From contig OX638294.1 in assembly GCA_951812325.1 (NCBI GenBank), positions 529,136 to 593,135 on the forward strand: a stretch of 64,000 nt of DNA, given 5' to 3'. The translations under genes and the position numbers were made by a program. This document shows, piece after piece, positions 108-38,236 of the stretch. Source of the stretch: an uncultured Thermoanaerobaculia bacterium (GTDB lineage Bacteria; Acidobacteriota; Thermoanaerobaculia; Multivoradales; Multivoraceae). The notes under the pieces are model-generated. The model did not search any database. It saw only the letters and a list, made by a program, of their open reading frames with translations, and was not told the origin of the DNA. Numbering within the stretch: position 1 is the stretch's first letter; each line of letters opens with the position of its first letter.

Positions 108-1004
108 GTGAAACGGATTCGCCGGGAATCCAGCATCTTCAGCGTCTCGGCCATCGATCTCTTCGCCTCGGCCCTGGGCGCGTTCATTATCGTCGCGTTC
201 GTGCTTCTGCCCTACTTCCCCAACACCGGCGACGCCCGGTCCGACGAGGTCGACGCCCTGCGCGCTCGAGCCGCCAGGGCCGAGGCGGAACGCGACTCCG
301 CAAGAGAGGAACGCGATTCCGCAAGACGGGCACTCGACTCCGCGAGACCCGCACTCCAACCGGCCCGCCAGGAAGACGGATCGACCGTGCAGGTGCTGCC
401 GCCCATCGACCTCGTCATCGCCCTCGACACGACCGGCAGCATGACCGCCGAGATTGTCAGCCTGCGCGAGGAGATCGCCGGGCTGGCGGAGCTCCTGCTC
501 GACCTGACCGAGGACGCCGCCATCGGCATCATCGACTTCAAGGACGGGTGCGGCGGCGCGCCCGCGCTGCGCGTCGCCCCACTGCAACCGGTCGACCGCG
601 GATCCGTGCCCCGGCTGACGACCTTCGCGCGGTCGATGCGCGCCGGGTCGGCAAGATGCAACACGACAGCGGACGAGGACTTCGCGGAGGCGCTCCGCGC
701 GGCCGCCGCCTCTGCATGGCGATCGGGCAGCGAGCGCCGGTCGATCGTCCTGATCACGGACAACCCGGCCCACGCCCATCTGCGGGACCAGGCGATCGCG
801 GATGCCGGGAGCTTCGCCGCCCGCTCCGGCGCCCTGCACACCGTATCGACCGTGTTCGTCGATCCTCCCTTCGCCGCTCGTCGCAGCTATCCGGGCACGG
901 CGTCCTTTCTGCAGCAGGTCGCGGTCACGGGCGGCGGGCAGTTCGTCCGCTCGAGTGAGAACGCGTCCCTCTCCGTGATGATCCTGCGGGCGATCTTCGG
1001 CTGA
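108..1004 (+). CDS. membrane-anchored von Willebrand factor A (vWA) domain protein
   Basis: 298-aa ORF. It has an N-terminal TM helix (SAIDLFASALGAFIIVAFVLLPYF), an Ala/Arg/Glu coiled coil (ERDSAREERDSARRALDSAR), then a vWA MIDAS-type start DLVIALDTTGSM. Confidence 0.8.
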   Translation: MKRIRRESSIFSVSAIDLFASALGAFIIVAFVLLPYFPNTGDARSDEVDALRARAARAEAERDSAREERDSARRALDSARPALQPARQEDGSTVQVLPPIDLVIALDTTGSMTAEIVSLREEIAGLAELLLDLTEDAAIGIIDFKDGCGGAPALRVAPLQPVDRGSVPRLTTFARSMRAGSARCNTTADEDFAEALRAAAASAWRSGSERRSIVLITDNPAHAHLRDQAIADAGSFAARSGALHTVSTVFVDPPFAARRSYPGTASFLQQVAVTGGGQFVRSSENASLSVMILRAIFG

Positions 1005-1172
1005 TGCCGTCCGCCCGCGAACTGTACGCTCCAGCGTGGCGACCCGCTCTTTCAGCTCCTCCCCGCTGTCTTCGGCTGATGCCGACCGGCGGCGAACTGT
1101 ACGCTCCAGCGTGGCGACCGGCTCTTTCAGCTCCTCCCCGCTGTCCTCGGCTGATGCCGACCGCCGGCGAGC
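995..1172. repeat. 75-bp tandem duplication (about 2.4 copies) anchored on the vWA stop codon
   Basis: The string cttcggctgatgcc occurs at 995 and 1070, and cctcggctgatgcc at 1145. The string actgtacgctccagcgtggcgacc occurs at 1021 and 1096. The first copy contains the last codons and TGA of the vWA gene. Confidence 0.9.
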
Positions 1173-1250
1173 CGTCGACCGCCGCCTGAGCCGCCGTTCG
1201 AGGTATGGCGCCGTGCAACCCGGACACCGCGCCCGTTCCCGAATCAGGTC

Positions 1251-3140: not shown

Positions 3141-3165
3141 CGGCGGCGCATTGGGTTCCGGCCCC

Positions 3166-3330
3166 GTCACGACGCCCGCCGACTCGCCAACAGCGGCATC
3201 TTCCAGCCGCGTGGCGCCAACGCCGGGTTCCCTTCCGGCCTCGGTCACGGCGCCCGCCGACTCGCCAACAGCGGCATCTTCCAGCCGCGTGGCGCCAACG
3301 CCGCGTTCCCTGCCGGCACCGTCACGGCGC
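3166..3330. repeat. 78-bp tandem duplication (2 copies plus anchor) abutting the recO stop codon
   Basis: The string gtcacg recurs at 3166, 3244 and 3321. The block gactcgccaacagcggcatcttccagccgcgtggcgccaacgcc occurs at 3181 and 3259. The recO stop (tca at 3322-3324 on the + strand) lies in the rightmost partial unit. Confidence 0.9.
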
Positions 3331-5472: not shown

Positions 5473-5789
5473 GACGAGTCGGATCGTACCAGTGGGGACC
5501 GGCGGGACGCCCGGACGCCGGCGCCAGATGCTCCCCGGCTTCCGGACCAGGGCTCCTCAGCCTGTTGGCGGGACCCGCAACCGTTCGCCGCCCTGTCGGG
5601 GCGGGTACCGTGCCGTAGGGCGTCGGGTCGCAGACGGCCTGCGCGAAGGCTGCCCGGGTTCCCAGCACAACCGCGCAGCGACAACGAAGCCAGCGCTCCT
5701 GCCCTATGGTCCGCATCACGGCGTCGCCGCGAAGTGGCGCGCCCAACGCCCTGAGCCCGGCGCGCCGGCCTGCGGCCTCCCCGCCCGCG

Positions 5790-6257
5790 CTAGCGGACCT
5801 CGAAGACGGCGTCGATCTCTACCGGCACGTTGAACGGCAGCTGGTTGGCGCCCACGGCGAAGCGGGCGTGCCTCCCCTTGTCGCCGAAGACCTCCACCAT
5901 GAGGTCCGAGGCGCCGTTGATCACCGCCGGGTGGTTGTCGAAGTCGTCGCTGCAGTTGACGAAGCCGCCGAGCTTCACGCAACGGACGACGCGTTCCAGG
6001 TCGCCGCCGCAGGCTGCCGCGACGACGGCCACGATGTTCACCGCGACCAGACGGGCGGCCTCCTGCGCCTCCTCCAGCGAGTAGTCGACACCCACCTTGC
6101 CCCGGTACGCCAACCGCCCGTCCTTCACCGGCACCTGGCCGGAAACGAAGACGAGCGACCCCGTGCGCACGAAGGGCACGTAGTTCGCGGCGGGCGCCGC
6201 GGCTTCGGGGAGTTCCAGGCCGAGCGCTTCAAGGCGCTCCTTGATCGTCGTGGTCAT
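5790..6257 (-). CDS. RidA/YjgF/L-PSP family protein
   Basis: 155 aa. It shows YjgF-type conserved blocks (FVSGQVPV, ARFAVGANQLPFNVPVEIDAVFEV). Confidence 0.8.
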   Translation of the reverse strand: MTTTIKERLEALGLELPEAAAPAANYVPFVRTGSLVFVSGQVPVKDGRLAYRGKVGVDYSLEEAQEAARLVAVNIVAVVAAACGGDLERVVRCVKLGGFVNCSDDFDNHPAVINGASDLMVEVFGDKGRHARFAVGANQLPFNVPVEIDAVFEVR

Positions 6258-6502
6258 CCAGGCAGACTCCTCGGCGCCTGCGAGCGCCCGATGTCGCGGG
6301 GCGGCAGGCTGCGACCCGGTGGCGTGGTCATCCCGACCGACTCCCCGGCGCCTGCAAGCGCCCGATGTCGCGGTGCGGCAAGCTGCGACCCGGTGGCGTG
6401 GTCATCCGGACCGACACGCCGGCGCCTGCAAGCGCCCGATGTCGCGGGGGGCAAGCTGCGACCCGGTGGCGTGGTCATCCGGACCGACTCCCCGGCGCCT
6501 GC
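6251..6502. repeat. 74-bp tandem duplication (about 3.4 copies) spanning the LLM stop / ridA start junction
   Basis: The string tggtcatcc occurs at 6251, 6325, 6399 and 6472. On the minus strand each unit carries ATGACCACG, the first three ridA codons. The rightmost unit holds the LLM stop in an overlapping ATGA. Confidence 0.9.
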
Positions 6503-7422
6503 GCAAAGGCGGCGAACAGCTCCTCGAACGCCTTGATCTGGTTGCCGGCCGCCGACGACGGCACCAGGATCGGCGTGCCGATACCGGCGTCGAACCAGCG
6601 CTCGACCCCCTCGCGCACCTCCGCCGCGGCGCCGAACAGCGTGCAATCGGCCAGCCAGCGATCCGACAGCAACCCCGGAATGCGGTCCATCTCGCCCTGT
6701 TCGACGGCCTGCTCCACCGCCTCCATCTCCTCGACGTAGCCGGCCGCCTTCCAGTAGTTGCGGTAGTTCGGCAGCAGCACGTAGCGGCTCAGGGTCTTGC
6801 GGTTGCGGGCCGCCGCCAGATCACGATCGTCGGAGATCACCGTCGGGATCATGTTGCCCACGAAGAAGTCGGGATCGGCGGCCCTTCCCCCCGTTGCCGC
6901 CAGGGAATGCGCCATGTGGGAGCGGGCGCCATTCGCGAACACCATGCCGTCGCCGATCTCCGCGGCGGTGGCGATCATCCGGTCGCGCAGCGTGGCGAGG
7001 ACGATCGGCGGCAGTTCGCCGGCGCCAGGCACCGCCTTCAGTTCGTCGACGAAGGAGCGGATATCGGACAGCGGCTTGCCGACGGTGACGCCCAACCGCG
7101 CGTGCGCCGGCGCGTGGCCGACGCCGACGCCGAACCGGAAGCGGCCCCGGGACACCTCGTGGATGAAGGACGCCGTGTGCGCGAACTCGGTCACGTGCCG
7201 GGTGTAGATGTTCACGATCGAGGTGCCGAACCGAATCCTCTCGGTACAAAGCGCGATCGCCTCGCAGAGCGCCAGCCCGTCGCCCATGCTGGGACAGTAG
7301 ATGCCGCTGAAACCACGGCGTTCGATCTCCGCCGCCAGGTCGAGCGTGAGCCGCCGGCGCCCCGGCACCGCAGCGAGGGAGACCGCCGGGAGGCCGTCGT
7401 GTTGCGGAGGCGCCGTCGTCAT
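6475..7422 (-). CDS. LLM-class (luciferase-like) F420-dependent oxidoreductase
   Basis: 315 aa, a TIM-barrel luciferase-like family by motif (FSGIYCPSMGDGLALCEAIALCTERIRFGTSIVNIYTRH, RFRFGVGVGH). It is in the same window as an F420 biosynthesis cluster. Confidence 0.75.
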   Translation of the reverse strand: MTTAPPQHDGLPAVSLAAVPGRRRLTLDLAAEIERRGFSGIYCPSMGDGLALCEAIALCTERIRFGTSIVNIYTRHVTEFAHTASFIHEVSRGRFRFGVGVGHAPAHARLGVTVGKPLSDIRSFVDELKAVPGAGELPPIVLATLRDRMIATAAEIGDGMVFANGARSHMAHSLAATGGRAADPDFFVGNMIPTVISDDRDLAAARNRKTLSRYVLLPNYRNYWKAAGYVEEMEAVEQAVEQGEMDRIPGLLSDRWLADCTLFGAAAEVREGVERWFDAGIGTPILVPSSAAGNQIKAFEELFAAFAQAPGSRSG

Positions 7423-7437: not shown

Positions 7438-10400
7438 TCAGCGTCCCGAGGCGACGATCTCAAGGGCGTCGAGAACCTTCTGCGCCTGCTTGCGGTCGAG
7501 ATACGGATGAGCGAACTGGTTGCGATAGCTCCGCAGGCAGCCGTAGCAACTGACATCGCAGCCGCAGCCGCCGGCCACCCGGCGGCGGGCGCCGGCGAGC
7601 ACCCTCATGAGGACGTCGTCGTCGTCCAGTTGCGTGACCAGACCGGCGCCGCCGGGAACGTTGTCGTACAGCACGACCGCCGATGCGTCAGGCACGCTCC
7701 CGGCGGCGATGGTGACGTTCAGGTCGTTCTGCGGAACGCCGATCGCGTCTGCGGCACCAAGGAGAACGGCGTAGGCGACCGAGTAGGCCGGCCACTGGTC
7801 ACGCAGGTCCGGGAACTCCATGCGGACGACGTCCGTGACCAACTCGTGGCCCAGCGAGAACTGTTCGAGCATTCCCCTGCACTCCCGACCGGTCGGAGCC
7901 TCGTGTTTGGCCGTGCGCTTCGCAGAGTGGGCGCCGCATGATCGGCAAACGAGGAACCCCCGACCGCCATGGCCTTCGCAGAGTATGACCAGAGTTCCCG
8001 AGGCGGCCGAACTGACACGCAACCCACAACGAGTTTGTGCGATATCGGCGTCGGCGTCGGCGAAACCCTGGAAGAACGGACGAGTGCTGTACACCCTGTG
8101 CGCTCGTCGCCGGGGAGGCTTCGGGTCCCTGAACATGGGTGTGACGAAACCAAACCGGGGAATCAGGTACTTCTTCCGCACCTGGGCTGGCGCATCGGAG
8201 CTTCCCTCGGTCCACTGTTCGAAGCTCCGCGAGTCGTCGTGCCGGTACATCCGTACCGGCCATTCCTTGCCGGACACCTTCCTGATCCCGCAAGACTCCC
8301 ACTCGAGCTTGTTCGCCACGACCTTCCCGCCCGGCGCGTACTCGGCGATCGCCTGGGAGAGGTCCCGCTGAAGAGACACGTTCAGCCCCCCGCCCCGAAC
8401 CTGCCGGGTGTGCAGCTCGACAACATCAACCGGGAAGCCGTACTTGGGGATCACGGCCTTCCGCGACAGGAACTCCAGTGTCGACCGGCCGGCGACCGTG
8501 TCCATGCGCTTCTTGACATCCTCTGCCTTTCGATACCCGCGTCGAGCAACAGCTGTCGCTTCGATCTCTCCCAGTTCGAGGTACTCCGAGCAGACCTCCG
8601 CCTCGGCGAGCCCGAGCCGGCTGTCCGGACCTCCGATGCGTTCGATCCACCGCCGGTCGCGCAGGCCCACGGCATCCGCCACGCCCTCAGGGACGATCCG
8701 GATCAGCATGGACTCAATCGACGTCGAGTTCTCTTCGCACCAAGTGGTGAAATCCCCCGCAGCCCGCGGAGCCTTCCAATCCTCGATGAAGGCGGCGACG
8801 TTCGTGAACCGCTTCCGGTGACGATGGAAGAACCCACTCAGGACGGCCGCCGCCATGTGGCGCAAGACGATGCGATCGTTTGAAAGATGAAGTCTCGGCG
8901 GATCCACATCGCCGCGGATCATGCTCGCTTCCGGATCCTCGTAGTGATGGAGGTCGTGCGGGTTGCGCCGGCAGTATGTCACCGCGAGGCCGGCCCGCTC
9001 TCCGCGTCCGGCCCGCCCAACTCTCTGGACGTAGTTGAATGGTTCCGGCGGCACGTTGCGCAGGAACACCACGTCGAGATCACCGAGGCTCACGCCCACC
9101 TCGAACGTCGTTGAGGAACTGAGGAGCTCGACCTCCCCGTTCTTGAACTTCTCCTGCAGGCGACGGGCCTTTTCCGGAGCGACCTGCGCGGTGTGTTCTT
9201 CCGCTCGCAGCCGCGGCGGCAGGCTCGGGCTCTCGTAGAGAAGCCTGTAGTGGTTGTCCACAAAGGTCCCCGGGTTCGCCGGATGCAGACCTCCGCTACA
9301 GCCGATCCGGGGACACACACCCCGGACGAAGTGCGGGGTCACCGTGGTGCAGGTGTCGCAGCGCCAGATCGGGTCGTCTCCGACCGGGTGGAGGCGCAGC
9401 CACTCCGAGCCCAGACGAAACGTGCCATCGAACTTCTCGCGAACGAGCAGCATACCGGTCGAAACCGCTGTCAGCGCTTTCCAGATCCCATAGGCCGCCG
9501 CCGTGCTCGGTTCCAGGGCCGTCGCCGCATCCCGGCCGTTCTTGCCGAGAACCCGGGGAAGGAAGTGCTTGACGAGCCCGGAAGCCCGGCTTCCCCATTG
9601 GGCAACGTGAGGGCGACCGCCCGGTTTTCCCAGGCCGTAGGCTGTCTGAGGGAGCTTGGAGACGTCCCTCCATACCGGGGCACCCTCGGTCGAAGGCAAG
9701 CGGAGAGCACGACGGGCCGGAAACGCGCTGAGGCAGTACTGAACCAGGCTCGATGCCTCGACCTCCGTGAGGTTCCAAGGTGGAGCGAGCAGCTCAGGCG
9801 GTACCGAGAAGTCCGCGGGAAGCGCGACGGTCCAGCGAACGAGACCGACACCGCTCAGGGAGATCCGCCGTTCTTCCGTGACGATCTCACCAAGGATCGC
9901 CGTCAGGACACATCGCCGGTGGGACTCCGCGGTCTCCGAGGCTCCGAACAGCCCGGCGCGCTCCCGGATTCTCCGCAGTCTGCTCGCCAGATCCTCGATG
10001 CTCAGGCCCTCTCCGGCCGCCGCCTCCCGCGCCGCCCGGAAGATCAGGTTCCGGTCGAGCAACCGACGGTAGGAGTCCTGGGCGTACCACGCGAAAAACG
10101 CCGCCTCCTGCCGACTGTCCGCGAAGGCGAGCACCTTTCGCCGCTTCTCGGGAAGCAACTCGAGCAGGGCGGTCGCGATGACCGCGTTCGGGCCGTCCGA
10201 CCCGTGGACGATTTCCTGAACCGGGTCGCCGACGCCGCCGCGACGGTAGCCGCAAGCCTCACACTGGCGGAGCTGATCCGGGTGGTCCTTGTGGGTTCGG
10301 CAGCGCACGACCTTGATTCCTGCGTCGCAGTCGCAGGTCAGATCTCGACTGGTGACCAGGCCGCAGCGCCGGCATAGTGTCCTGTTCCCTTCTTCCGAGG

Positions 10401-11685
10401 GCATGAAGAACTCGGCTCCGAAACCGGATCGCCCCGGATCGCGAACCGCCTCCCGGAGTCTTCCGCGGAGCACCTGGCCGACGTAGTAGTGCTGGCCGCA
10501 TTCCCGGCAGAGCGCGAGTTCGAGAGGCGTGGCCTTCGCCTCCTTCTCGCTCTCCCCCTCGTCGTCGCCGCGGTTGAGACGGACGACGTCGCGGCCTTCA
10601 CGGTGGACCAGGAAAGCGCCCTCGAGCGCCCTGAGGAATGCGTGATACCGACTTGCTTCTTCACCACGCTCCTCTTCGCGCTCCGCAAAGACCACGTCTC
10701 CAGACCCGAAGGGCTCGCCAAACAGAGTCTTCGCGAATTTCGCGACTGCCGCCCGGTCTTCCTCTGCCTCACTAGTCGACAGAGTGGCGCTAGTCGCGAT
10801 GCAACGGAACGGCTTGTCGCTGCCTCGACCGCCCTCGCAGATTCGCTGCTTGAGCCGCCGGATCAGCATGGCCATCTCCATCCCCTTGGCGCCCCGATAC
10901 TGGTGCGCTTCATCGAGCACCAGAAAGCGCCAGCGGGAACCTCGACCCTCATCGAAGAGCGGGCTGTCGTCGGGCCGGATCAGCAGGTACTCCAGCATGG
11001 AGTAGTTCGTCAGCAGGATGTGGGGCGGCGAATCCCGCATCTCCTCGCGGAACACGAGTTCTCCCGGAAGCCGACCCTCCTCCCTCGTCTTGCCATGACG
11101 CCATTTGTCTCGGACGTTGTAGGGCGTCTGCCCGATGTACTGGCCGAACGTCGGACGAAAAGCAGATCCCGAGGCCGCAAGCGCCCGGCAGATCTCGCCC
11201 AACCGTTCGCGTTGGTCATTCGCCAGGGCGTTCATCGGATAGAGGATCAGCGCCCGGACACCCCCATCGTCCAGCTCGCCGGAAAGGTGCTGCCGGTACA
11301 GGTGCAGGAGGATCGGATAAAGAAAACTCTCCGTCTTCCCGCTAGCCGTCCCGGTTGCCACCACGGCATTCCGGTCCTCGGCGTGAAGCAGCCTGATCGC
11401 CTGCTCCTGATGCATGTAGAGCGGCTGTTCGATCAGGGCTGGCTCAACGCCGATGCTACGGCCAGGAAACCACTCCCGCGCCAGCACTCGCGCCGAAACG
11501 CCTCGCCGGAAGTCACGGGAGCGTTCAGGAATCGGCCCCTTGAGCAGGGTTCCCTCTTCGCGAAGCGCCTGCTGGAAGGAGGCTCTGAGCGCCGGATCCC
11601 GGAAGAAGAACGAGGTCTTGAGATAAGCCTCGTAGCGACGGCGGATCCGCTCGGGCCATTCGTTGATTTCAAGCGCGCTGGGCAT
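7438..11685 (-). CDS. large DEAH-box superfamily-2 helicase with C-terminal DUF1998/MZB zinc domain
   Basis: Helicase motifs present: motif [12 protein letters not shown], motif [14 protein letters not shown], motif [10 protein letters not shown] and motif [12 protein letters not shown] Cys-rich insert sits between the RecA lobes ([25 protein letters not shown]). The C-terminus [12 protein letters not shown]...[18 protein letters not shown] is the DUF1998 four-Cys signature. The likely start is ATG 11685 ([10 protein letters not shown]), which overlaps the upstream gene's stop by 17 nt. The ORF is open to 11742. Confidence 0.85.
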
Positions 11686-27193: not shown

Positions 27194-27991
27194 ATGATCG
27201 AACTGTTTGGCCAGCCGTCGTTCTGGGCGGCGCTGTTCTCGGTCACGCTGATCCAGATCGCGCTCGGCGCCGACAACCTGATCATCATCACGATCATCGC
27301 CAACAAGCTGCCCGACGCTCGGCGCAAGCAGGCGATCCAGCTCGGCCTGGTGCTGGCGATGGCGCTCCGCATCGTGCTGCTGCTGATCCTGAGCCTGGTG
27401 CTCGGGGCCGCGACGACCGAACTCTGGACCTTCGACGGGGCGTTCCTCGGCGTCGGGATGGCCGGCAGCGTCGACGGCAAGTCGCTCGTGCTCGTGATCG
27501 GCGGCCTGTTCCTGATCTGGAAGGGCATAAAGGAGCTGCGCATCAAGCTGAAGGCGGTCGAGCACGAGGTCGCGAAGGCAAGCCGCTTCGCCGAGGTGGT
27601 CACCCTGATCGTCGGCATGAACCTGATCTTCTCCGTCGACTCGATCCTGACCGTCGTCGGCATGACGGACATCTTCGCCGTCATGGTCGGCTCGGTGCTC
27701 ATCTCGGTCGCGCTGATGCTGGTCTTCGCCGGTCCGATCTCGCGGTTCCTCAGCTCCAACCCCGAGTTCGAGATCCTCGGCCTGTTCGTCCTCCTGCTGA
27801 TCGGCTTCGTGCTGATCCTCGAAGCGGGCCACAGCGCGCACCTGACCGTGAACGGCGCCCCCACCCCGTACATCCCGCAGTGGATCGTCATCTTCATCCT
27901 GCTGCTGATGTTCGCGCTCGACCTGTACCAGAACTGGTGGGAGCGAAAGCAGGAGGTCGACGCGGTAACGCTCCACCGGCGGCGCAAGTAG
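27194..27991 (+). CDS. TerC/Alx-family integral membrane protein
   Basis: 265 aa, multi-TM. The N-terminus WAALFSVTLIQIALGADNLIIITIIANKLP is the TerC-family signature. Confidence 0.85.
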   Translation: MIELFGQPSFWAALFSVTLIQIALGADNLIIITIIANKLPDARRKQAIQLGLVLAMALRIVLLLILSLVLGAATTELWTFDGAFLGVGMAGSVDGKSLVLVIGGLFLIWKGIKELRIKLKAVEHEVAKASRFAEVVTLIVGMNLIFSVDSILTVVGMTDIFAVMVGSVLISVALMLVFAGPISRFLSSNPEFEILGLFVLLLIGFVLILEAGHSAHLTVNGAPTPYIPQWIVIFILLLMFALDLYQNWWERKQEVDAVTLHRRRK

Positions 27992-28137
27992 CAGCCGCAC
28001 GCCCCCGCCGGGCGCCGAAGGCCGCACGGTCGACGCGGTAACGCTCCACCGGCGGCGCAAGCAGCAGCCGCACGCCCCCGCCGGGTGCCGAAGGCTGCAC
28101 GGTCAACGAGGTAACGCCCCACCGGCGGCGCAAGCAG
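27956..28137. repeat. 73-bp tandem duplication (about 2.5 copies) of the TerC 3' end
   Basis: The string gtcgacgcggtaacgctccaccggcggcgcaag occurs at 27956 and 28029, with a diverged copy (gtcaacgaggtaacgccccaccggcggcgcaag) at 28102. The TAG stop in copy 1 becomes CAG in the later copies. Confidence 0.9.
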
Positions 28138-28241: not shown

Positions 28242-28946
28242 ATGTCCGAGAACGATTCAGCCAGTCCGCCACTGCCCACTCTCGCCATGCTCGGCGCCAC
28301 CGGCGACCTTGGCGGCGGCCTCGCCCGGCGCTGGGCCGCGGCCGGCTACTCGATCGTCATCGGCTCGCGCTCGCGGGAAAAGGGCGCCGGCTCGGCCGAG
28401 GACGTGAACGAGCAGCTTCGCGCGCAGGGCCTGGCCCCCTCGGTCCGCGGCACGGACAACCTGAGCGCCGCCGAGGAAGGCGACCTCGTCGTGCTGACCG
28501 TGCCTTACGCCTTCCAGCGCGCCACGCTGGAGGCGGTGCGCGACGCGCTCCAGGGCAAGATCCTGGTCGACTGCACGGTGCCGCTCGTCCCGCCGAAGGT
28601 CGCGCGGGTGCAGCTTCCCGACGAGGGCTGCGCCGCGGTCATCGCCCAGCAGGCCGTCGGCCCGGATGTGCGCGTCGTCTCGGCCTTCCAGAACGTCGGC
28701 GCCGCCCACCTGCGGGAAGACGACGCGGTGGATTGCGACGTGCTGGTGACCGGCGACGATCCGGCGGCGCGCGCCGAAGTCATCGAACTGATCGAGGCGC
28801 TGGGGATGCGCGGCTGGCACGCCGGGCCGCTCGACAACGCCGCCGCCGCCGAGGCGCTGACCTCCGTCCTGATCCAGTTGAACCGCAAGTACGGCATTGC
28901 CGGCGCGGGGATCCGGATTACCGGCCAGGTGACCCGCACTCCCTGA
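28242..28946 (+). CDS. npdG: NADPH-dependent F420 reductase (F420H2:NADP+ oxidoreductase)
   Basis: 234 aa. It has a Rossmann start LAMLGATGDLGGGLARRWAAAGYSIVIGSRS. Size and context next to the cof genes fit. Confidence 0.75.
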   Translation: MSENDSASPPLPTLAMLGATGDLGGGLARRWAAAGYSIVIGSRSREKGAGSAEDVNEQLRAQGLAPSVRGTDNLSAAEEGDLVVLTVPYAFQRATLEAVRDALQGKILVDCTVPLVPPKVARVQLPDEGCAAVIAQQAVGPDVRVVSAFQNVGAAHLREDDAVDCDVLVTGDDPAARAEVIELIEALGMRGWHAGPLDNAAAAEALTSVLIQLNRKYGIAGAGIRITGQVTRTP

Positions 28947-28992
28947 AGACGGTCGGCTGACGACCGCCTCGCTTGCCGCACTCGCCGCACCC

Positions 28993-29205
28993 GTGCCGAG
29001 GAGACGGGTAGCCTTCGGCCTCCGAACTTCCGATCCTGAGGTGCCGACGTGGTGGGCCGCGGGGAAGCAGTACCCGAGGCGACGGGTAGCCTTCGGCCTC
29101 CGAACTCCCGATCCTGAGGGGCAGACGTCGTGGGCCGCGGGGGAGCAGTACCCGAGGCGACGGGTACCCTTCGGCCTCCGAACTTCCGATCCGTTCCTCC
29201 GCGTT
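28993..29205. repeat. 78-bp intergenic tandem repeat (about 2.7 copies) between npdG and cofE
   Basis: The string gacgggta occurs at 29003, 29081 and 29159. The unit ccgaggcgacgggtagccttcggcctccgaacttccgatcctgagg contains a gccttcggc hairpin. Confidence 0.9.
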
Positions 29206-29233
29206 CACCGGCCGCCGCGTCGTCGTCTGCATC

Positions 29234-29995
29234 ATGTTGAGCATCCAGTCCGTACCCGGCCTTCCCGAAGTCCGACCCGGCGACGACCTGGCCTTCCTGA
29301 TCACGGAAGCGATGCACCGGGCGCGCCTGACGTTGCGCGCCGGCGATGTACTCGTCGTCGCCCAGAAGATCGTCTCCAAGGCCGAAGGCCGAATCGTCGA
29401 ACTCGCGACGGTCGAACCCCGTGCCGAAGCCGTGCGGCTGGCGGCGGAGTGCGACAAGGATCCGCGGCTGATCGAACTCGTGCTCCGCGAATCCACCGCA
29501 GTGCTCCGCACCGTGCCGGGAGTCATCATCGTCGAGCATCGGCTCGGCCTGGTGCTGGCGAACGCGGGGATCGATCAGTCGAATCTGCGGCCAGGCGACG
29601 ACCACGGCTGCGCCCTGCTCCTGCCGGAGGATCCGGACGCCTCGGCGGCGGACCTGCGTGAAGCGCTCGCGGCGCGTTTCGGGGTCGAGGACATCGGCGT
29701 GACGATCAACGACAGCGTCGGCCGGGCCTGGCGTCTCGGCACCGTCGGGCTGGCAATCGGCGTTGCCGGCATGACGGCGCTCCGGGACCTGCGCGGAGAC
29801 CGCGACCGGTTCGGCCGTGAACTCCAGGTATCGGAAACCGGGATCGCCGACCAGATCGCAAGCGCCGCCCAGGTCGTCCAGGGCGAGGGCGACGAAGGCG
29901 CGCCCGTGGTGCGCGTCCGCGGCCTGAATAAGCTCGGGCCGGCTCAGGACGCGCGCGCGCTCCTGCGGCCTCGCAACCAGGATCTGTTCCGGTGA
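29234..29995 (+). CDS. cofE: coenzyme F420-0:L-glutamate ligase (stand-alone CofE)
   Basis: 253 aa. The N-terminus reads PGLPEVRPGDDLAFLI...GDVLVVAQKIVSKAEGRIVEL, and the sequence also contains ANAGIDQSN. There is no C-terminal nitroreductase-like domain. Confidence 0.85.
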   Translation: MLSIQSVPGLPEVRPGDDLAFLITEAMHRARLTLRAGDVLVVAQKIVSKAEGRIVELATVEPRAEAVRLAAECDKDPRLIELVLRESTAVLRTVPGVIIVEHRLGLVLANAGIDQSNLRPGDDHGCALLLPEDPDASAADLREALAARFGVEDIGVTINDSVGRAWRLGTVGLAIGVAGMTALRDLRGDRDRFGRELQVSETGIADQIASAAQVVQGEGDEGAPVVRVRGLNKLGPAQDARALLRPRNQDLFR

Positions 29996-31074
29996 GCACC
30001 GGCCCGTCGCCGTCGGAGGGCGCCCGGACGCGCTTTGCCGACTCGCAACCGGAATCTGTTCCGGCGGGCCCCGGCACGGGCCGCTGCCTCGCGCTGTCCG
30101 GCGGCGTTGGCGGCGCCAAGCTCGCACTCGGACTGTCGCGGGTTCTGCCGCCGGAGGACCTGACGATCGTCTGCAACACGGCGGACGACTTCGATCATCT
30201 CGGTCTCCGCGTCTGCCCCGACCTCGACACGGTGATGTACACCCTGGCCGGCGTCTCCAACCGCGTTACCGGCTGGGGTCAGGCGCACGAGACGTGGTCC
30301 TTTCTCGAGGCGCTTGCCCGGCTCGGCGGCGAGACCTGGTTTCGGCTCGGCGACCGGGATCTGGCGACCCACGTGGAGCGGACCCGCAGACTCCGCGCCG
30401 GCGAAAGCCTGACCGGGGTGACGGACGCGCTGTGCCGGGCGCTCGGCGTCGAAGCGAGGGTGCTGCCGATGAGCGACGATCCGGTGCGCACCGTCGTCGG
30501 CACGCGGGACGGCGAACTGAGCTTCCAGCACTACTTCGTCCGCGACCGCTGCGCCCCGGCGGTGACGGGCTTCCGCTTCGCGGGCGTCGATGCCGCCCGC
30601 CCGGCGCCGGACTTCCTCGCCGCCCTCGAGGACGACGCGACGGCGGCGATCGTCATCTGCCCCTCAAACCCCTTCGTCAGCGTCGATCCCGTGCTCGCGG
30701 CGCCGGGCGTCGAGCGGGCCCTGCGCCGCACAAGAGTTCCCGTCGTCGCGGTCTCACCCATCGTCGGCGGCGCGGCGATCAAGGGCCCCGCGGGCAAGAT
30801 GATGGCGGAACTCGGGATGCCGGTCACGGCAATCGGGGTCGCCAGGCACTACCGGAAACGGGATCTGCTCGACGGCTTCGTCATCGATCACGTCGATGCC
30901 GGGCAGGCGGCGGAAATCGAGAATCTCGGCCTCCCCACCCTGGTGACCGGCACGGTGATGGAGACGCTGGCCGACCGCGAACGCCTCGCCAGGGAGACGA
31001 TGGACTTCGCCCGCGGGCTCGCCCTCCCGCCCGACGACATCGTGGAAGCCGCGCCGCCGGAACCGTCCACGTGA
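29992..31074 (+). CDS. cofD: 2-phospho-L-lactate transferase (CofD/FbiA)
   Basis: 360 aa with LALSGGVGGAKLALGL and CNTADDFDHLGLRVCPDLDTVMYTLAG. The start overlaps the cofE stop. Confidence 0.9.
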   Translation: MSTGPSPSEGARTRFADSQPESVPAGPGTGRCLALSGGVGGAKLALGLSRVLPPEDLTIVCNTADDFDHLGLRVCPDLDTVMYTLAGVSNRVTGWGQAHETWSFLEALARLGGETWFRLGDRDLATHVERTRRLRAGESLTGVTDALCRALGVEARVLPMSDDPVRTVVGTRDGELSFQHYFVRDRCAPAVTGFRFAGVDAARPAPDFLAALEDDATAAIVICPSNPFVSVDPVLAAPGVERALRRTRVPVVAVSPIVGGAAIKGPAGKMMAELGMPVTAIGVARHYRKRDLLDGFVIDHVDAGQAAEIENLGLPTLVTGTVMETLADRERLARETMDFARGLALPPDDIVEAAPPEPST

Positions 31075-31781
31075 CGACGGAGGGCCTGTGGACGGTCCTG
31101 CCGGTCAAGGCCTGGTCCGAGGCCAAGCGGAGGCTGTCTCCCATCCTGAGCGCCGGAGAGCGGGAGGCCCTGGCCCGCTCGATGCTCGACGACGTGCTCG
31201 AGGCGATAGCGGGCGCCCCCCACGTCACGGGCACGCTTGCCGTGACCGCGGACGACGTGGCGGCGAGCTACCTCAGGGCAGCCGGATGCGAGGTTCTGTC
31301 CGAGCCCCGGCGAGGCCTGAACCGGGCGCTGGGCACGGCCGCCGGGGAACTCGGGCGCCGCGGCGAGGCGACGATGCTCGTCTTGCCGATCGACCTGCCC
31401 CTGGTGACCGCGGCGGACCTGCAGGAACTCTGCGCCCGGCACTTCGAGGATCAAGGACGCCACGTGGGCGGGAAGGCGCCGGGAGCGGCGGTGACCGTGG
31501 CGCCCGACCGCTTCCGTTCCGGGACCAACGCCCTGGTCTGTTCGCCGCCCGGATGCATCCCGTTCCGCTTCGGCGACGGCAGCTTCCACGCCCATCTGCG
31601 GGAGGCGGAAAGGGCGAGAGCCGCTCACTCCAGCGTGGTCCTCGCGAATCTCGGACTCGACGTGGACCATCCGGACGATCTGGCCGAACTGCTGCGGCTC
31701 GACCGTTCGGGCCGAACAGGCCGCTTCCTGCGTGGACTCGGGGCGCCGGACCGGCTGGAGATCCCGCGCAACCGGGACTGA
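31071..31781 (+). CDS. cofC: phospho-lactate/PEP guanylyltransferase (CofC/FbiD)
   Basis: The GTG start overlaps the cofD stop (GTGA at 31071-31074). The sequence WTVLPVKAWSEAKRRLSPILSAGEREALARSMLDDVL and LPIDLPLVTAADL fit the MobA-like CofC fold. Confidence 0.8.
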   Translation: MTTEGLWTVLPVKAWSEAKRRLSPILSAGEREALARSMLDDVLEAIAGAPHVTGTLAVTADDVAASYLRAAGCEVLSEPRRGLNRALGTAAGELGRRGEATMLVLPIDLPLVTAADLQELCARHFEDQGRHVGGKAPGAAVTVAPDRFRSGTNALVCSPPGCIPFRFGDGSFHAHLREAERARAAHSSVVLANLGLDVDHPDDLAELLRLDRSGRTGRFLRGLGAPDRLEIPRNRD

Positions 31782-31874
31782 TACCGTTCGGCACTCTTCG
31801 AGCCTGTCGCATCCCAGTCCGATCGAAATTGTCGCCGGGCACCGATCGGCTCGGCGCCCGCCGCCGTCATCGCC

Positions 31875-34517
31875 ATGTCACCTCCGCTCAGCGCGTTCCT
31901 GGACCGTCGCCCGACCCCTGACGAAGCGCACGCGCTTGCCCGCATCGAGCCGGGCGCCGGCCTCGACCAGCTGGTCGAGATGGCCGGCGAGCTGCGCGAC
32001 CGGGGCCACGGCGACCTGATCTCCTACTCGCGCAAGGTGTTCCTGCCGCTCACCCACCTGTGCCGGGACATCTGCCACTACTGCGTTTTCGCACAGCCGC
32101 CCAGGAAGGGCGAGGCGGCGTACATGCCGCTCGACAGCGTGCTGAGCCAGGCACGCCTCGCCGCGGCGGCCGGTTGCAAGGAGGCTCTCTTCACCCTCGG
32201 GGACAAGCCCGAGCTGCGCTACAAGGCGGCCCGCGAGGGCCTGGCGGAACTCGGCCACGAGTCGACCCTCTCCTACCTCCGCGAGGCCGCGGAACGGGTG
32301 TTTACCGAGACCGGGCTCCTGCCCCACCTGAACCCGGGCCTGATGACCGCCGGGGACATCGAGCGTCTGCGCCCCGTATCGCCGTCGATGGGCATCATGC
32401 TGGAGAGCGTGTCCATGCGGCTGCACGAGAAGGGCCAGGCGCACTACGGCTGCCCCGACAAGGTGCCCTCGCGAAGGATGGAGACGCTCCGGCTGGCCGG
32501 CGAGGCACGGGTGCCCTTCACCTCCGGCATTCTGATCGGCATCGGCGAGACGCGCGAGGAACGGATCGACGCCCTGCTCGCGATGCGCGGCCTGCACGAA
32601 GAGTACGGTCACATCCAGGAAGTCATCGTCCAGAACTTCCGCGCCAAGCCCGGGACCCGGATGAAGGACGCGCCCGAGCCGACCCTCGAGGACCTGCTGT
32701 GGACGATCGCCGCGGCGCGCCTCGTGCTCGGACCCGGGATGCACATTCAGGCGCCGCCGAATCTGAGCCCGGGCGTTCTGCCGCAGCTCATCGCAGCCGG
32801 CATCGACGACTGGGGCGGCGTCTCGCCGGTCACTCCGGACTTCGTCAACCCCGAGGCCCCCTGGCCCCACCTCGAACGTCTCGGCGAAGAGACCGCCGCC
32901 GCCGGCAAGACCCTGGTCGAGCGTCTGACGGTCTATCCGGAGTGGGCCAGACGCGGCGAGATCTGGCTCGACGACGGCCGCGGCCAGAGTCGCGCCGTCC
33001 GCCGCATGGGTGGCGTCCGTGCCGCCGTCCTGCAGCGCATCGACTCCACCGGGCTGCCGCGCACGGACGAGTGGTCGCCGGGAGAACAGACGCCGCCGCC
33101 GCGCGACATCCTGGACACGGTGACGGCGCCGGTCAGCCGCAACGGCAACGGCAACAGCGCCGTCGCTCCGACGCGCGAGATGCACCGCGAACCCCTGAGC
33201 ATGCGCGCCGGAGTCTCCGCGCCGTCGGCCGCGCCGGACCGAGCCCGGAGTTGCCCCCGCGAACCCCCGAGCATGCGCGCCGGAGTCTCCGCGCCCGTTC
33301 AGGCGGCCCTCGACCGGGTCCGCTCGGGCGGGGACCTGACCGAGGATCAGATCGCCGCCCTCTTCCGCGCCCGCGGCGCCGACTTCACCGCCGTCTGTTC
33401 CGCCGCCGATCAGGTCCGCCGCGAGGTGAACGGCGACACGGTGACCTACGTCGTCAACAGGAACATCAACTACACGAACGTCTGCTACTTCAAGTGCCAG
33501 TTCTGCGCCTTCTCGAAGGGCAAGCTGAGCGAGAACCTGCGCGGCAAGCCGTACGACCTGGAACTCGAGGAGGTCATGCGCCGCACGGTCGAGGCCTGGC
33601 AGCGCGGCGCGACGGAAGTCTGCATGCAGGGCGGCATCCACCCGGACTACACGGGCGAGACGTATCTCGGAATCTGCCGGGCGGTGAAGGAGGCGGCGCC
33701 CGAAATCCACGTCCACGCCTTCTCGCCGCTCGAGGTCTGGCAGGGCGCCGCGACCCTCGACATGCCGCTTGGCGACTACCTGCTGCTCCTCAAGGAGGCG
33801 GGCCTGGGCACCCTGCCCGGCACCGCCGCCGAGATCCTCGACGACGAGATTCGCGCGATCATCTGCCCCGACAAGCTGAACACGGACCAGTGGCTCGAGG
33901 TGATGGAGACCGCCCACGGGGTCGGCTACCGCACGACGGCGACGATCATGTACGGCCACGTCGACGGCCCGCGAAACTGGGCCCGTCACCTGCTCCGCCT
34001 GCGCGACCTGCAGAAGCGCACCCGCGGCTTCACCGAGTTCGTGCCCCTTCCCTTCGTCCACATGGAGGCGCCGCTCTACCTCAAGGGCCGCGCCCGCAAG
34101 GGGCCGACCTTCCGCGAGGCGGTGCTCATGCACGCCGTCGCCCGGCTGGCGCTTCACCCCTGGTTCGAGAACGTCCAGGCCTCCTGGGTCAAGATGGGGC
34201 CGGAAGGCGTCGCGGCCTGCCTCCGGGCCGGAGTGAACGACCTCGGCGGCACGCTGATGAACGAGAGCATCACCCGCGCCGCCGGTTCCGAGCACGGCCA
34301 GGAACTGCCGCCGTCCGCGATGGAGGCGCTGATCCGCAAGCTGGGCCGCGTGCCGAAGCAACGGACGACCGCCTACGGCGCCCCGCCCCCGGAACGCGTC
34401 GAAGCTTCCTTCCAGGCGGCGGAACTGGCCGCCGTGCTGAACACGCCCGCGCACCGGTACGAGCGCACCGGCCCCCTGCGGCTCGTCCGCCCGGGCTTGG
34501 GCGCCGACGGCGCCTAG
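31875..34517 (+). CDS. fbiC: FO synthase, fused CofG+CofH (FbiC)
   Basis: 880 aa with two radical-SAM halves (CRDICHYCVF and CYFKCQFCAF CxxxCxxC motifs). The linker carries a 72-bp in-frame duplication. Confidence 0.9.
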   Translation: MSPPLSAFLDRRPTPDEAHALARIEPGAGLDQLVEMAGELRDRGHGDLISYSRKVFLPLTHLCRDICHYCVFAQPPRKGEAAYMPLDSVLSQARLAAAAGCKEALFTLGDKPELRYKAAREGLAELGHESTLSYLREAAERVFTETGLLPHLNPGLMTAGDIERLRPVSPSMGIMLESVSMRLHEKGQAHYGCPDKVPSRRMETLRLAGEARVPFTSGILIGIGETREERIDALLAMRGLHEEYGHIQEVIVQNFRAKPGTRMKDAPEPTLEDLLWTIAAARLVLGPGMHIQAPPNLSPGVLPQLIAAGIDDWGGVSPVTPDFVNPEAPWPHLERLGEETAAAGKTLVERLTVYPEWARRGEIWLDDGRGQSRAVRRMGGVRAAVLQRIDSTGLPRTDEWSPGEQTPPPRDILDTVTAPVSRNGNGNSAVAPTREMHREPLSMRAGVSAPSAAPDRARSCPREPPSMRAGVSAPVQAALDRVRSGGDLTEDQIAALFRARGADFTAVCSAADQVRREVNGDTVTYVVNRNINYTNVCYFKCQFCAFSKGKLSENLRGKPYDLELEEVMRRTVEAWQRGATEVCMQGGIHPDYTGETYLGICRAVKEAAPEIHVHAFSPLEVWQGAATLDMPLGDYLLLLKEAGLGTLPGTAAEILDDEIRAIICPDKLNTDQWLEVMETAHGVGYRTTATIMYGHVDGPRNWARHLLRLRDLQKRTRGFTEFVPLPFVHMEAPLYLKGRARKGPTFREAVLMHAVARLALHPWFENVQASWVKMGPEGVAACLRAGVNDLGGTLMNESITRAAGSEHGQELPPSAMEALIRKLGRVPKQRTTAYGAPPPERVEASFQAAELAAVLNTPAHRYERTGPLRLVRPGLGADGA
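33186..33296 (+). repeat. in-frame 72-bp tandem duplication in the FbiC inter-domain linker
   Basis: The string cgcgaacccctgagcatgcgcgccggagtctccgcgcc at 33186 is matched by cgcgaacccccgagcatgcgcgccggagtctccgcgcc at 33258 (REPLSMRAGVSAP / REPPSMRAGVSAP). Confidence 0.9.
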
Positions 34518-34529
34518 CAGCCTGCCATC

Positions 34530-34600
34530 CATGCGCCCGCTGACGGGCGCACGGACTGGTTCACGGGTGGCGCGGAACCGCGCCACCCGGGTTCTGGCCG
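34530..34600. repeat. isolated twin-hairpin core of the MITE-like family (inverted orientation) between convergent genes
   Basis: The string tgcgcccgctgacgggcgcacggactggttcacgggtggcgcggaaccgcgccacccggg is the reverse complement of the core at 41636-41697. Confidence 0.8.
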
Positions 34601-35934: not shown

Positions 35935-36759
35935 ATGCGCCAGGAGAACGAGGAGCCACGCGTGCGGAAACCGGGCGCCGGTCGCACACGCAGCCAGGTT
36001 CTGTGGCCGCTCGCGTTCCTCACGCTGATCCTCGGGTTGGTCGTGGCGATCGTGATCAGTTTCTTCGTCATCCGAGTGACCATGCTGCCCAGGGAGGTGG
36101 TGGAGGGCGGCCGCGAGCTCGCCCGCGACGCCGCCCTTGCCGTCGAGCGGATCGCGAAGGCGTTCCACACGGGCACCGTCCAGACCTCCTTTCTGAGTTA
36201 CGCCACCGAAGTCTCGGGCAGCGCCTTCCTGCAGTTCGCCTCTCTCGACCAGATCGAGGTGCTCCAGCGCACGGACTCGACAAGCCTGCTGTGGGGGCGG
36301 CTCAGGCTGCCTGACGTGATGGTCGAGGCGCGGGTTCCGGTCCGCTACACCTACTACCTGGACCTCGAGGACGAGTGGTCCCTGACCCTGGACGGAACGA
36401 CGGTCCATGTGCTGGCGCCAGGCGTGCGTGCAAACCGGCCGGCCGTGGACACTTCGGCGATCGAGTACCGGGTCCAGGCGGATTCGCTCCTGCGCGACGA
36501 GGAGGCGGTCCTGGAGCGGCTCCGGCGCCGCATCACGGACCAGTTGGCGTCTCGCGCGGGCGAGAACATCGCCCTGGTGCGCGAACTCGGGCGGCGCAGG
36601 ACGGCCGACTTCGTCCGCACGTTCCTCCTGTCGCAGTTCGGCGAGGACGTCGAGGGATATCGGATCGAGGTCAGTTTCCGGGACGAAGTCGACCTTCCCG
36701 CTTCGCCGGCCCTTGGCCCCGAGGCGTCGCGCGTCGTGACCGGGCAAGAGCAGCAGTGA
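35935..36759 (+). CDS. membrane-anchored DUF4230-like protein
   Basis: 274 aa. It has an N-terminal TM helix (VLWPLAFLTLILGLVVAIVISFFVI) and a body with a VPVRYTYYLDL-type pattern that I associate with DUF4230. Not HMM-verified. Confidence 0.55.
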   Translation: MRQENEEPRVRKPGAGRTRSQVLWPLAFLTLILGLVVAIVISFFVIRVTMLPREVVEGGRELARDAALAVERIAKAFHTGTVQTSFLSYATEVSGSAFLQFASLDQIEVLQRTDSTSLLWGRLRLPDVMVEARVPVRYTYYLDLEDEWSLTLDGTTVHVLAPGVRANRPAVDTSAIEYRVQADSLLRDEEAVLERLRRRITDQLASRAGENIALVRELGRRRTADFVRTFLLSQFGEDVEGYRIEVSFRDEVDLPASPALGPEASRVVTGQEQQ

Positions 36760-36866
36760 GCGGCAGTGAGAGGCCGGCAGTGAGAGTGGACCTGGACGCG
36801 AGCGAGGACAGCGAGGACAAGGGGCACTTGCAGCATTGAGCGGCAGTGAGAGACCGGCGGTGAGAG
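36750..36866. repeat. 78-bp tandem duplication anchored on the DUF4230 gene stop codon
   Basis: The string gcagcagtgagcggcagtgagaggccggcagtgagag at 36750 is matched by gcagcattgagcggcagtgagagaccggcggtgagag at 36828. Confidence 0.85.
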
Positions 36867-38236
36867 ACCGCCTGGCGCGCCGACGCCAGCGACTGCGGGC
36901 CCGACAGGCGGACCGCTTCGGCCGCATGGCGGAGCAGGTCCACGTTCACAACCCGTTCTACCGGGCAAAGTGGCAAGCCGCCGGCTTCGACTCCCCGCCG
37001 ACCCTGGACGACCTGGAGAACCTTCCCTTCACGACCAAGGCCGAGCTCGCCGCCGACCAGGACGCGAACCCGCCCCGGGGCAGCAACCTGACCTTCCCCT
37101 TCGACCGCTACGTGCGCGTTCACCGCACGTCGGGAACGACCGGCAAGCCGCTGCGCTGGTTCGACACCCCGGCCAGCTGGCAGTGGTTCCTCGATTGCTG
37201 GCTTGAAACCTACAGGGGCGCCGGCGTCGGTCCCGACGACCGAGTCTTCGTCGCCTTCGGCTTCGGCCCCTTCGTGGGCTTCTGGACCGCGTTCGAGGCA
37301 GCGCAGCAACTCGGCTGTCTGGCCATGCCCGGCGGTCACCTGAGCACCGAGCAGCGCCTCAACGTGATCCGCGAGGAAGGCGCCACGGTTCTGGTGGCGA
37401 CGCCGACCTATGGCCTGCGCCTGCTCGAGGTCGCACGCCAGCTGGGCGTCGATCTCGCCGTCAGTTCGATCGAGCGGACGATTCACGGCGGCGAGCCGGG
37501 CGCCGGCGTACCGGCCGTCAAGCGCCAGCTCGCGGAGGGGTTCGGAGCTCGGGTCTTCGACCACGCCGGCGCGACGGAGGTCGGCGCCTGGGGCCACCCC
37601 TGCGGCGTCGGCGAGCATCTCCACATCTTCGAGGAGGAGTTCATCGTCGAGTGGCTCGACCGGACGACCGGAGAGCCGCTCCAACCGCTCGGCCCAGGCG
37701 CAAGCGAGACCGACCCGACCCTCGGCGAACTCGTCGAACATGGGCCTCGAGCGCGCGCTGGAGCGGCGGGCGCAAGCGAGACCGACCCGACCCTCGGCGA
37801 ACTCGTGCTGACCAACCTGGGCCGGATCGGCAGCCCGGTCGTCCGCTACCGCACCGGCGACGTCGGACGCCTGTGCGCCGCCGGCTGTCCCTGCGGCCGG
37901 CCGACCGTCTACCTCGATGGCGGTGTTCGCGCCCGCGCCGACGACATGTTCATCGTCCGCGGCGTGAACGTCTACCCGAGCTCGATCGACGCGATGATCC
38001 GGGAAGTCGGCGGAGTCGCCGAGTACCGCGCGACGGTACGCGAACGCCGGCAGATGGTCGAAGTCGAACTGGAGGTCGAGCCGGAGCCCGGCCGCGCGGC
38101 CGGAGTTCTCCGTCTCCGGCTACAGGATCTCTTCCAGAGGCGCCTCAGCCTCCGGATACCGGTACGCATCGCGGCGACCGGTTCCCTGACCCGCTATGAA
38201 CTCAAGGCGAACCGCTTCACGCTGGAGCGACCGTAG
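36836..38236 (+). CDS. phenylacetate-CoA ligase-like adenylate-forming enzyme (PaaK / F390 synthetase family)
   Basis: Family motifs present: NPFYRAKWQAAGF, RVHRTSGTTGKPLRWFDT, GGEPG, RYRTGD and FIVRGVNVYPSSID. The start is uncertain (TTG 36836 or GTG 36860). Confidence 0.8.
   Translation: MSGSERPAVRDRLARRRQRLRARQADRFGRMAEQVHVHNPFYRAKWQAAGFDSPPTLDDLENLPFTTKAELAADQDANPPRGSNLTFPFDRYVRVHRTSGTTGKPLRWFDTPASWQWFLDCWLETYRGAGVGPDDRVFVAFGFGPFVGFWTAFEAAQQLGCLAMPGGHLSTEQRLNVIREEGATVLVATPTYGLRLLEVARQLGVDLAVSSIERTIHGGEPGAGVPAVKRQLAEGFGARVFDHAGATEVGAWGHPCGVGEHLHIFEEEFIVEWLDRTTGEPLQPLGPGASETDPTLGELVEHGPRARAGAAGASETDPTLGELVLTNLGRIGSPVVRYRTGDVGRLCAAGCPCGRPTVYLDGGVRARADDMFIVRGVNVYPSSIDAMIREVGGVAEYRATVRERRQMVEVELEVEPEPGRAAGVLRLRLQDLFQRRLSLRIPVRIAATGSLTRYELKANRFTLERP
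37697..37808 (+). repeat. in-frame 72-bp tandem duplication inside the PaaK-like CDS
   Basis: GASETDPTLGELV is encoded at 37697 and again at 37769. Confidence 0.9.

Follow-up and report, generated by a model that had tools for sequence, protein, structure and literature searches.

What process could fill 38 kb of a bacterial genome with tandem arrays whose units are unrelated to one another? The question is raised by a 64,000-nucleotide stretch of contig OX638294.1 (hereafter the window, part of a contig of 4,634,923 bp) from an uncultured Thermoanaerobaculia bacterium of the phylum Acidobacteriota. An initial annotation of this DNA reported at least ten independent tandem duplications, most with a period of 72 to 78 bp and six of them anchored on a stop codon. 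Gene calls in the window were annotated by Pfam, and arrays were delineated with Tandem Repeats Finder (TRF), a repeat finder and row alignments. TRF and the repeat finder recovered all ten arrays, including the purely intergenic one (a7), and two older arrays that had been missed, a11 and a12, bring the total to 12. These arrays, a1 to a12 (Table 1), all lie within the first 38 kb of the window. We consider it likely that they are genuine minisatellite loci with a variable number of tandem repeats (VNTR type), confined to one species-level Acidobacteriota lineage.

The reality of the arrays could be judged in contigs assembled independently from the same species. These belong to the HiFi (hifiasm) assembly ERZ18545498, in which contig ptg000223l provides loci L164 and L165 and contig atg000098l provides locus L170, all 97 to 99.6% identical to the window. 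Arrays a2, a3, a11, and a12 were essentially unchanged in the conspecific contigs. The copy-number polymorphism that the initial annotation had proposed to look for in related genomes was found at four loci: the window and its conspecific carry, respectively, 2.5 and 5.5 copies of a6, 2.5 and 1.5 of a7, 4 and 1 of a5, and 1.5 and 0.5 of a10. Array loci aside, about 42 kb of conspecific alignment contains a single 3-nt indel, and these loci therefore dominate recent length change. Together with two wholesale replacements at two of them, the array loci account for nearly all length variation between the conspecifics. An assembly or consensus artefact could have been suspected, since the arrays are missing from other species of the clade and part of most units finds no match. 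Such an artefact is extremely improbable: the same arrays recur in ptg000223l and atg000098l, where unit-level substitutions are seen and copy numbers differ, array placement respects genes and reading frames, and conservation is highest in the gene-proximal copies. The artefact is thereby refuted for the loci shared with conspecific contigs, a1 and a10 being window-only, and the earlier preference for a real process was borne out. A short-read k-mer artefact (periods near k = 77, 79, or 119) was also ruled out by the 4.63-Mb contig and the independent hifiasm contigs.

We then compared the window with its wider relatives. According to a CofE scan of species-representative genomes, the closest ones are metagenome-assembled genomes titled Candidatus Multivorans, Holophagales, Thermoanaerobaculia, or Acidobacteria, and their loci are syntenic with the window at roughly 80 to 94% DNA identity. 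Additional relatives were gathered through protein look-ups and a metagenome scan, of which P0011, P0013, and P0157 turned out to represent other species, in which the arrays are not present. Counting arrays with a period of at least 30 bp gave 10.9 per 100 kb in the window and 18.8 in the conspecific loci versus 0.74 in diverse control loci, and zero in 299 kb from other species of the clade, sister species with an identity of about 90 to 95%. The clustering of periods described earlier stands, with the range widened to 72 to 80 bp: 10 of the 12 arrays fall within it (P ~2e-12, for a log-uniform expectation between 30 and 400 bp), and only a4 (153 bp) and a5 (118 bp) fall outside. One period required correction, as the array at the DUF4230-like gene (a9), given as 78 bp, repeats at 80 bp and includes a 12- to 14-nt microsatellite.

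Projection of the flanks onto the relatives revealed an unexpected anatomy. With A denoting the native segment, B the added segment, x and y the flanks, and B-A the unit, most sites read x-A-y in relatives versus x-A-(B-A)n-y in the window. The A-only state was found in relatives at a2, a3, a6, a7, a10, and a12, and probably also at a1, a8, and a9. The initial annotation, which treated every event as a tandem duplication, was thus wrong for eight to nine arrays, in which only A (20 to 54 bp) is native, and the two 72-bp duplications described as full copies (a8 and a10) are A-B-A structures of 1.5 copies. Ordinary replication slippage, whereby native sequence is duplicated and the copies then diverge, does hold for a5, which is present as one full copy in L005 and in L164, and for a11. 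Both are plain duplications of native DNA, as is probably the 153-bp repeat in ZorA (a4), judging from its alignment with a homologue. As a general account, slippage is unlikely. It is incompatible with the relatives that have A only, and with a10, where the A copies are 100% identical yet B resembles neither flank in direct orientation, so that divergence cannot explain B. For the majority class of arrays this explanation is refuted. In the classical model, minisatellites originate by slippage between short repeats that flank native DNA, which yields no novel B.

The two parts of the unit obey a length rule. Among the A+B arrays, A measures 20 to 54 bp (standard deviation [SD], 8.8) and B 26 to 58 bp (SD, 8.9), and the two are anticorrelated (r = -0.95). 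Their sum is 74.9 +/- 2.9 bp, when independence would give an SD of 12.5 (permutation p = 2e-5). The constraint thus acts on the total added length, and on neither the duplicated part nor the inserted part alone. The arrays are of different ages, with A-copy identity spanning 100% to about 80%. This layout resembles that of a clustered regularly interspaced short palindromic repeat (CRISPR) unit, where a target is duplicated around an insert of similar size, and about 72 to 78 bp matches arrays with 36- to 37-nt repeats. An ectopic integration of the CRISPR type could therefore be envisaged, in which an integrase resembling Cas1-Cas2 would insert B as a spacer-sized fragment and duplicate the repeat-sized target segment A, with recombination amplifying the product. 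Spacer integration yields the A-B-A form, and six arrays have an A of 36 to 41 bp and a B of 31 to 39 bp, typical of systems with 36- to 37-nt repeats. Off-target integration by Cas1-Cas2 has been documented in E. coli, according to a passage of PMC7054753 that cites Nivala et al. 2018. This origin nevertheless appears quite unlikely. The integrase sets both lengths independently, whereas here their sum is fixed; the same B is repeated within an array, unlike spacers, and the "repeat" differs from one locus to the next. Moreover, no Cas family was detected among about 40 window proteins with Pfam or among six with PADLOC, and no B matched viral contigs or phage records.

The source of B was sought both locally and at a distance. 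Within one array, the B copies are 89 to 100% identical. Except at a10 and a8, B has no counterpart in the neighbouring 70 nt, either direct or reverse-complement. Neither a reversed, complemented, or shuffled flank nor a transition-hypermutated copy accounts for it, and it is no patchwork of local 6- to 8-mers, for which enrichment was inconsistent. Compared to the flank expected as its source, B shows random-level identity (about 22 to 40%), and it finds no match in the rest of the window, among 2 Mb of compared loci, in IMG/VR (exact scans), or in GenBank phage records. At a10, the reverse complement of B imperfectly resembles the 22 nt directly upstream of A (empirical p = 0.002), and a8 has the same inverted-flank geometry (p = 0.012); the signal was not found in the other seven A-B-A arrays. 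It is suggestive of an origin by snap-back or template switching but does not comfortably survive multiple-test correction. No recognition motif was seen by eye at the boundaries between x and A or between A and y. Other window-specific insertions (5501-5780, 41521-41773, 43029-43157, and 47786-47929) did not contain hidden degenerate arrays.

The units themselves are mutually unrelated in an all-against-all analysis (110 comparisons; best pairwise z = 3.5), which agrees with the earlier view of a process rather than a repeat family. Their folding is unremarkable (z, -1.9 to +1.0), they have no terminal inverted repeats and no Rfam match at the gathering score, and no dispersed copies were found in the 2 Mb of loci. 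The units have the size of a tRNA, and the window is devoid of tRNA and tmRNA. Folding, unit comparison, Rfam, and the A+B length test all support the statement that repetitive extragenic palindrome, CRISPR, or terminator biology does not explain the arrays. Unit size and position are reminiscent of mycobacterial interspersed repetitive units (MIRUs), which measure 40 to 100 bp and lie between operon genes, with open reading frame (ORF) ends overlapping the stop and start of the neighbours (PMC3184786; PMC12548453). Here too, tandem units of 40 to 100 bp occur at intercistronic junctions, and a spurious ORF in a3 runs from the stop of LLM to the start of ridA via ATGA overlaps, bridging the two at -4. 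However, MIRUs form one dispersed, putatively mobile family, whereas each locus here has its own sequence that reuses local DNA, in an acidobacterial host. Four arrays (a2, a3, a9, and a12) are positioned like MIRUs and the other eight are not. That a MIRU-like family, or one of miniature inverted-repeat transposable elements (MITEs), inserted at gene junctions and formed tandem arrays is thus highly improbable. The absence of any shared sequence refutes it; terminal inverted repeats and dispersed copies are also lacking, A is always local native sequence, and the true MITE of the window is unrelated to the arrays.

By anatomy and behaviour, the arrays are VNTRs or minisatellites, MIRU-like in position and size only and CRISPR-like in layout only. 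Like the ETR, QUB, and Mtub loci of Mycobacterium tuberculosis, known from multiple-locus VNTR analysis, they consist of head-to-tail, locus-specific units, are often intergenic with a partial final copy, and have a copy number that is polymorphic between genomes of one species. They differ from such loci by their density, with a dozen loci in 38 kb compared to about one per 135 kb in control loci, and by a near-uniform length of 72 to 80 bp of mostly part-native units within one species. A literature search returned nothing specific on stop-anchored arrays of about 75 bp of this kind.

The positions of the arrays are filtered by selection, as had been suggested. The coding fraction of the window is 0.91, and at least 8 of the 12 arrays lie in the remaining 9% or so of non-coding DNA or on gene junctions (P ~2e-6). 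The rule that intragenic periods are multiples of 3 holds for all four in-frame arrays (72, 72, 72, and 153 bp for a8, a10, a12, and a4), while the periods of the others are unconstrained (73, 74, 75, 75, 78, 78, 80, and 118 bp). Stop codons could be located in each of the six arrays described as stop-anchored (a1, a2, a3, a5, a6, and a9). That an array boundary lies 3 to 24 codons from the stop is also true but is a trivial consequence of a stop-containing unit of about 75 bp. In a6, the gene-proximal A keeps its TAG and has 1 difference from L005, and the distal copies read CAG and have up to 5. Overlapping stop/start junctions host 4 of the 12 arrays (a2, a3, a9, and a12). With an A at either end of the array, the first one still terminates the upstream gene and the last one still provides the start of the downstream gene, and insertion at ATGA or GTGA is therefore tolerated. 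The location of four arrays exactly on such overlaps, together with copy numbers that vary within the species, could also be taken to mean that the arrays are selected elements, i.e., tunable spacers for translational coupling or expression (mutL, ridA, and cofD) whose copy number acts as a contingency switch. This explanation is very unlikely given that the units have no common sequence, that arrays also occur between convergent genes (a1 and a5) and inside proteins (a8 and a10), and that sister species do without them.

Several arrays altered the proteins encoded around them. The LLM gene has lost its own TAG and extends 9 aa into a3 (315 versus 306 aa in relatives), CofD has acquired a 24-aa N-terminal extension from a12 (360 aa here and in L164 versus 326 aa in L167), and the phenylacetate-CoA-ligase-like protein and FbiC each carry a 13+11-aa insert from a10 and a8, respectively. 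Three of the arrays (a7, a12, and a8) lie in an F420 biosynthesis cluster (28242-34517) composed of genes for an F420-dependent oxidoreductase, cofE, cofD, cofC, and a fused fbiC (cofG/cofH). In sister species, the ATG of mutL and the stop of recO overlap; in the window, the two genes are 156 bp of array apart, and GTG replaces ATG in every junction copy of a2. Judging from this junction, MutL expression may be altered in a lineage that has an unusual indel spectrum.

How the arrays arise can be proposed only tentatively. A lineage-specific, previously undescribed DNA transaction equipped with a ruler of about 75 nt might insert de novo (non-allelic or untemplated) sequence and re-copy its target, adding 72 to 80 bp per event, and so generate minisatellites and new protein segments at an indel-dominating rate. 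Its cause would be either a lineage-specific alteration of an enzyme of replication or repair, or some insertion machinery not yet known. The chance that the founding step is a new mechanism is substantial, although below one half. In the reading that we consider likely, a founding insertion-duplication step would convert x-A-y into x-A-B-A-y, each such step adding 72 to 80 bp made of a variable re-copy of the adjacent native A and a new B. The resulting direct repeats would then expand or contract through slipped-strand mispairing or unequal recombination. Purifying selection would purge arrays that break genes, leaving survivors at gene 3′ ends, at stop/start overlaps, and in intergenic DNA, as the A at both ends preserves the upstream stop and the downstream start; those in frame would persist in tolerant linkers. 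At the enzymatic level, our weakly held guess is a template switch during replication or repair, in which a strand might leave its template after A, acquire a short stretch not copied from the allelic template, and re-enter at the start of A. Such a switch would need a length ruler of about 75 nt. Flap or slippage models yield native sequence only. Transposon target-site duplication and end-joining filler or templated insertion (polymerase-theta type) also leave a native segment on both sides of an insert, and the inserts of a10 and a8 resemble the inverted adjacent flank, as in templated insertion. In contrast to these processes, the segment duplicated here varies in length (20 to 54 bp), element ends are lacking from the insert, and neither transposon duplication nor end-joining filler predicts a constant A+B.

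Several points weigh against the reading given here. Without an explanation for B, the proposed founding step amounts to a description rather than a mechanism. The three plain duplications and the two periods off 72 to 80 bp mean that more than one process may be at work. Neither genome has arrays in the 38- to 64-kb part of the window (P ~0.002), and confinement to the first 38 kb is not predicted by a uniform genome-wide process. Just left of the window start, L165 (16608-18396) contains another four tandem repeats, whose periods (36, 33, 60, and 39 bp) are all multiples of 3, in or adjoining the genes for a 556-aa protein with no Pfam domains and a PP2C-like protein. The tandem repeats of this species are therefore not restricted to 72 to 80 bp, and a genome-wide peak at that length may be less sharp. 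Finally, the conspecific comparison covers one other genome and about 57 kb of sequence.

If the fixed-length A-B-A step is a real enzymatic signature, it would represent a new bacterial mutational mechanism and would show the natural birth of minisatellites and of short new peptide segments, such as the 24-aa insertion in the CoA ligase and the extensions of CofD and of the LLM oxidoreductase. If it merely reflects slippage and rapid turnover, the window still displays an extreme, lineage-specific proliferation of VNTRs. In addition, the arrays would serve as strain-resolving markers for this uncultured group. Since a2 parts recO and mutL, which overlap in every sister species examined, altered expression of a repair gene in this lineage is a testable idea.

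Table 1. Tandem arrays, defence genes, and MITE-like copies in the window (positions in the window; A, native segment; B, added segment; x, number of copies)
Feature	Position	Strand	Structure and site	Parts	Flank projection, relatives	Flank projection, window	Source
a1	994-1170	.	A(BA)2, 75 bp x2.4, 94% matches	A ~29 bp (vWA final 3 codons + TGA); B ~46 bp			TRF, repeat finder
a2	3156-3330	.	78 bp x2.3; recO(-)/mutL(-) junction	A ~20 bp (recO TGA overlapping GTG start, GTGA); B ~58 bp	20-21 bp	175 bp	TRF
a3	6249-6502	.	74 bp x3.4; LLM(-)/ridA(-) junction	A ~33 bp (ribosome-binding site + ATGA); B ~41 bp	28-38 bp	254 bp	TRF
a4	16768-17076	+	153 bp (51 aa) x2.0, in-frame; ZorA coiled-coil tail				TRF
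a5	26006-26475	.	118 bp x4.0, copies 98-99% identical				TRF
a11	27052-27201	.	Old 75 bp x2.0; divergent GST/TerC promoter region				Comparison with relatives
a6	27955-28137	.	A(BA)2, 73 bp x2.5	A 37 bp (TerC final 12 codons + TAG, 27989-27991); B 36 bp	Exactly 37 bp	183 bp	TRF
a7	28996-29192	.	78 bp x2.5; intergenic, upstream of cofE	A 41 bp; B 37 bp			TRF
a12	29963-30075	+	Old 72-bp A-B-A; cofE stop/cofD start junction	A 41 bp (copies 83% identical); B 31 bp			Comparison with relatives
a8	33185-33295	+	In-frame 72-bp A-B-A, 1.5 copies; FbiC inter-domain linker	A 39 bp (13 aa); B 33 bp (11 aa)			Repeat finder
a9	36742-36875	.	80-bp A-B-A, 1.5 copies; DUF4230-like/phenylacetate-CoA-ligase-like junction	A 54 bp (including 12-14-nt microsatellite; arms 81% identical); B 26 bp	30 bp	134 bp	TRF, repeat finder
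a10	37697-37806	+	In-frame 72-bp A-B-A, 1.5 copies; phenylacetate-CoA-ligase-like gene	A 38 bp (copies 100% identical); B 34 bp	38 bp	110 bp	Repeat finder
DruE-like DEAD/MZB helicase	7438-11742	-					
Roughly 1260-1300-aa protein	11669-15559	-	Sigma-70 regions 2-4; PADLOC MzaA match				
ZorA	15453-17861		Zorya type I (complete)				
ZorB	17868-18707		Zorya type I (complete)				
ZorC	18715-20166		Zorya type I (complete)				
ZorD	20163-24575		Zorya type I (complete)				
MITE, full copies	41512-41763 and 56712-56962		94% identical				
MITE, partial copies	47806-47920 and 55435-55502						
MITE, hairpin part	34511-34592 and 13798-13855						

The individual loci further illustrate these features. 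Array a1 lies between the convergent vWA (108-1004, +; TGA at 1002-1004) and mutL genes, and in L165 a single A precedes 211 nt of unrelated sequence. The conspecifics differ wholesale in two intergenic regions that separate convergent genes, vWA/mutL and acetyl-CoA hydrolase/GST (window 1023-1250; L165, reverse complement, 6940-7150; L164 6050-6250), and the replaced stretches of about 200 nt are mutually unrelated and unmatched in any compared locus. In a2, which contains the recO stop at 3322-3324, the array is open in the mutL frame; L165 also has it (77 bp x2.2), and in other species only the short junction with overlapping stop and start is present. In a3, the LLM stop (6475-6477) comes from the rightmost A and the ridA start ATG (6255-6257) from the leftmost A. 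The ORF that runs from the ATGA at the former to the ATGA at the latter has 74 codons, and L165 carries the same array, also at x3.4.

The two a4 copies are 85% identical at the DNA level, and a ZorA homologue in L084 (54% aa identity) is exactly 51 aa shorter across this stretch. The a5 unit, situated between convergent genes, includes the last 24 codons of GST(-) and its stop (26402-26404), and the single copy in L005 measures 115 bp. L005 has a single copy of the a11 unit, to which both a11 copies align; copy 1 is strongly diverged in its second half, and a11 is identical in L164. The a6 site has the same length in five relatives. L164 also carries a12, and at the a8 site it has a different insert, of 51 nt, at the same nucleotide position. 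The DUF4230-like stop lies within a9 at 36757-36759. A microsatellite in the a9 A segment (36748-36870), GGCAGTGAGAGNCC, of 12 to 14 nt, differs in copy number between the conspecifics, and the corresponding L164 region (16740-16910) contains more copies of it and differs in the middle part. The a10 insert was found neither in L164, despite flanks that are 99.5% identical, nor in any of 120 listed homologues (412 to 434 aa), and a10 is the youngest event.

A defence island (7438-24575) also lies in the window, with arrays on both sides of it. Most sister species have the LLM gene directly next to that for acetyl-CoA hydrolase, and the island is therefore an insertion of roughly 17 kb. The window further contains the MITE-like element of about 250 bp with 20-nt terminal inverted repeats, AGCAGCCCGTGGCAGAAGTC ... 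GACTTCTACCACGGGCTGCT. This element, which is unrelated to the arrays of about 75 bp, accounts for two window-specific insertions. Its copy at 56712 is not in the conspecific L170 and its copy at 41512 is not in L081, indicating that the element moved recently. Lastly, divergence from the conspecific is 1 to 2.5% (mostly 2 to 2.5%) over window positions 1-37734 versus 0.4 to 0.5% over 37769-64000, and this step, located at a10, suggests a recent recombination or sweep boundary.

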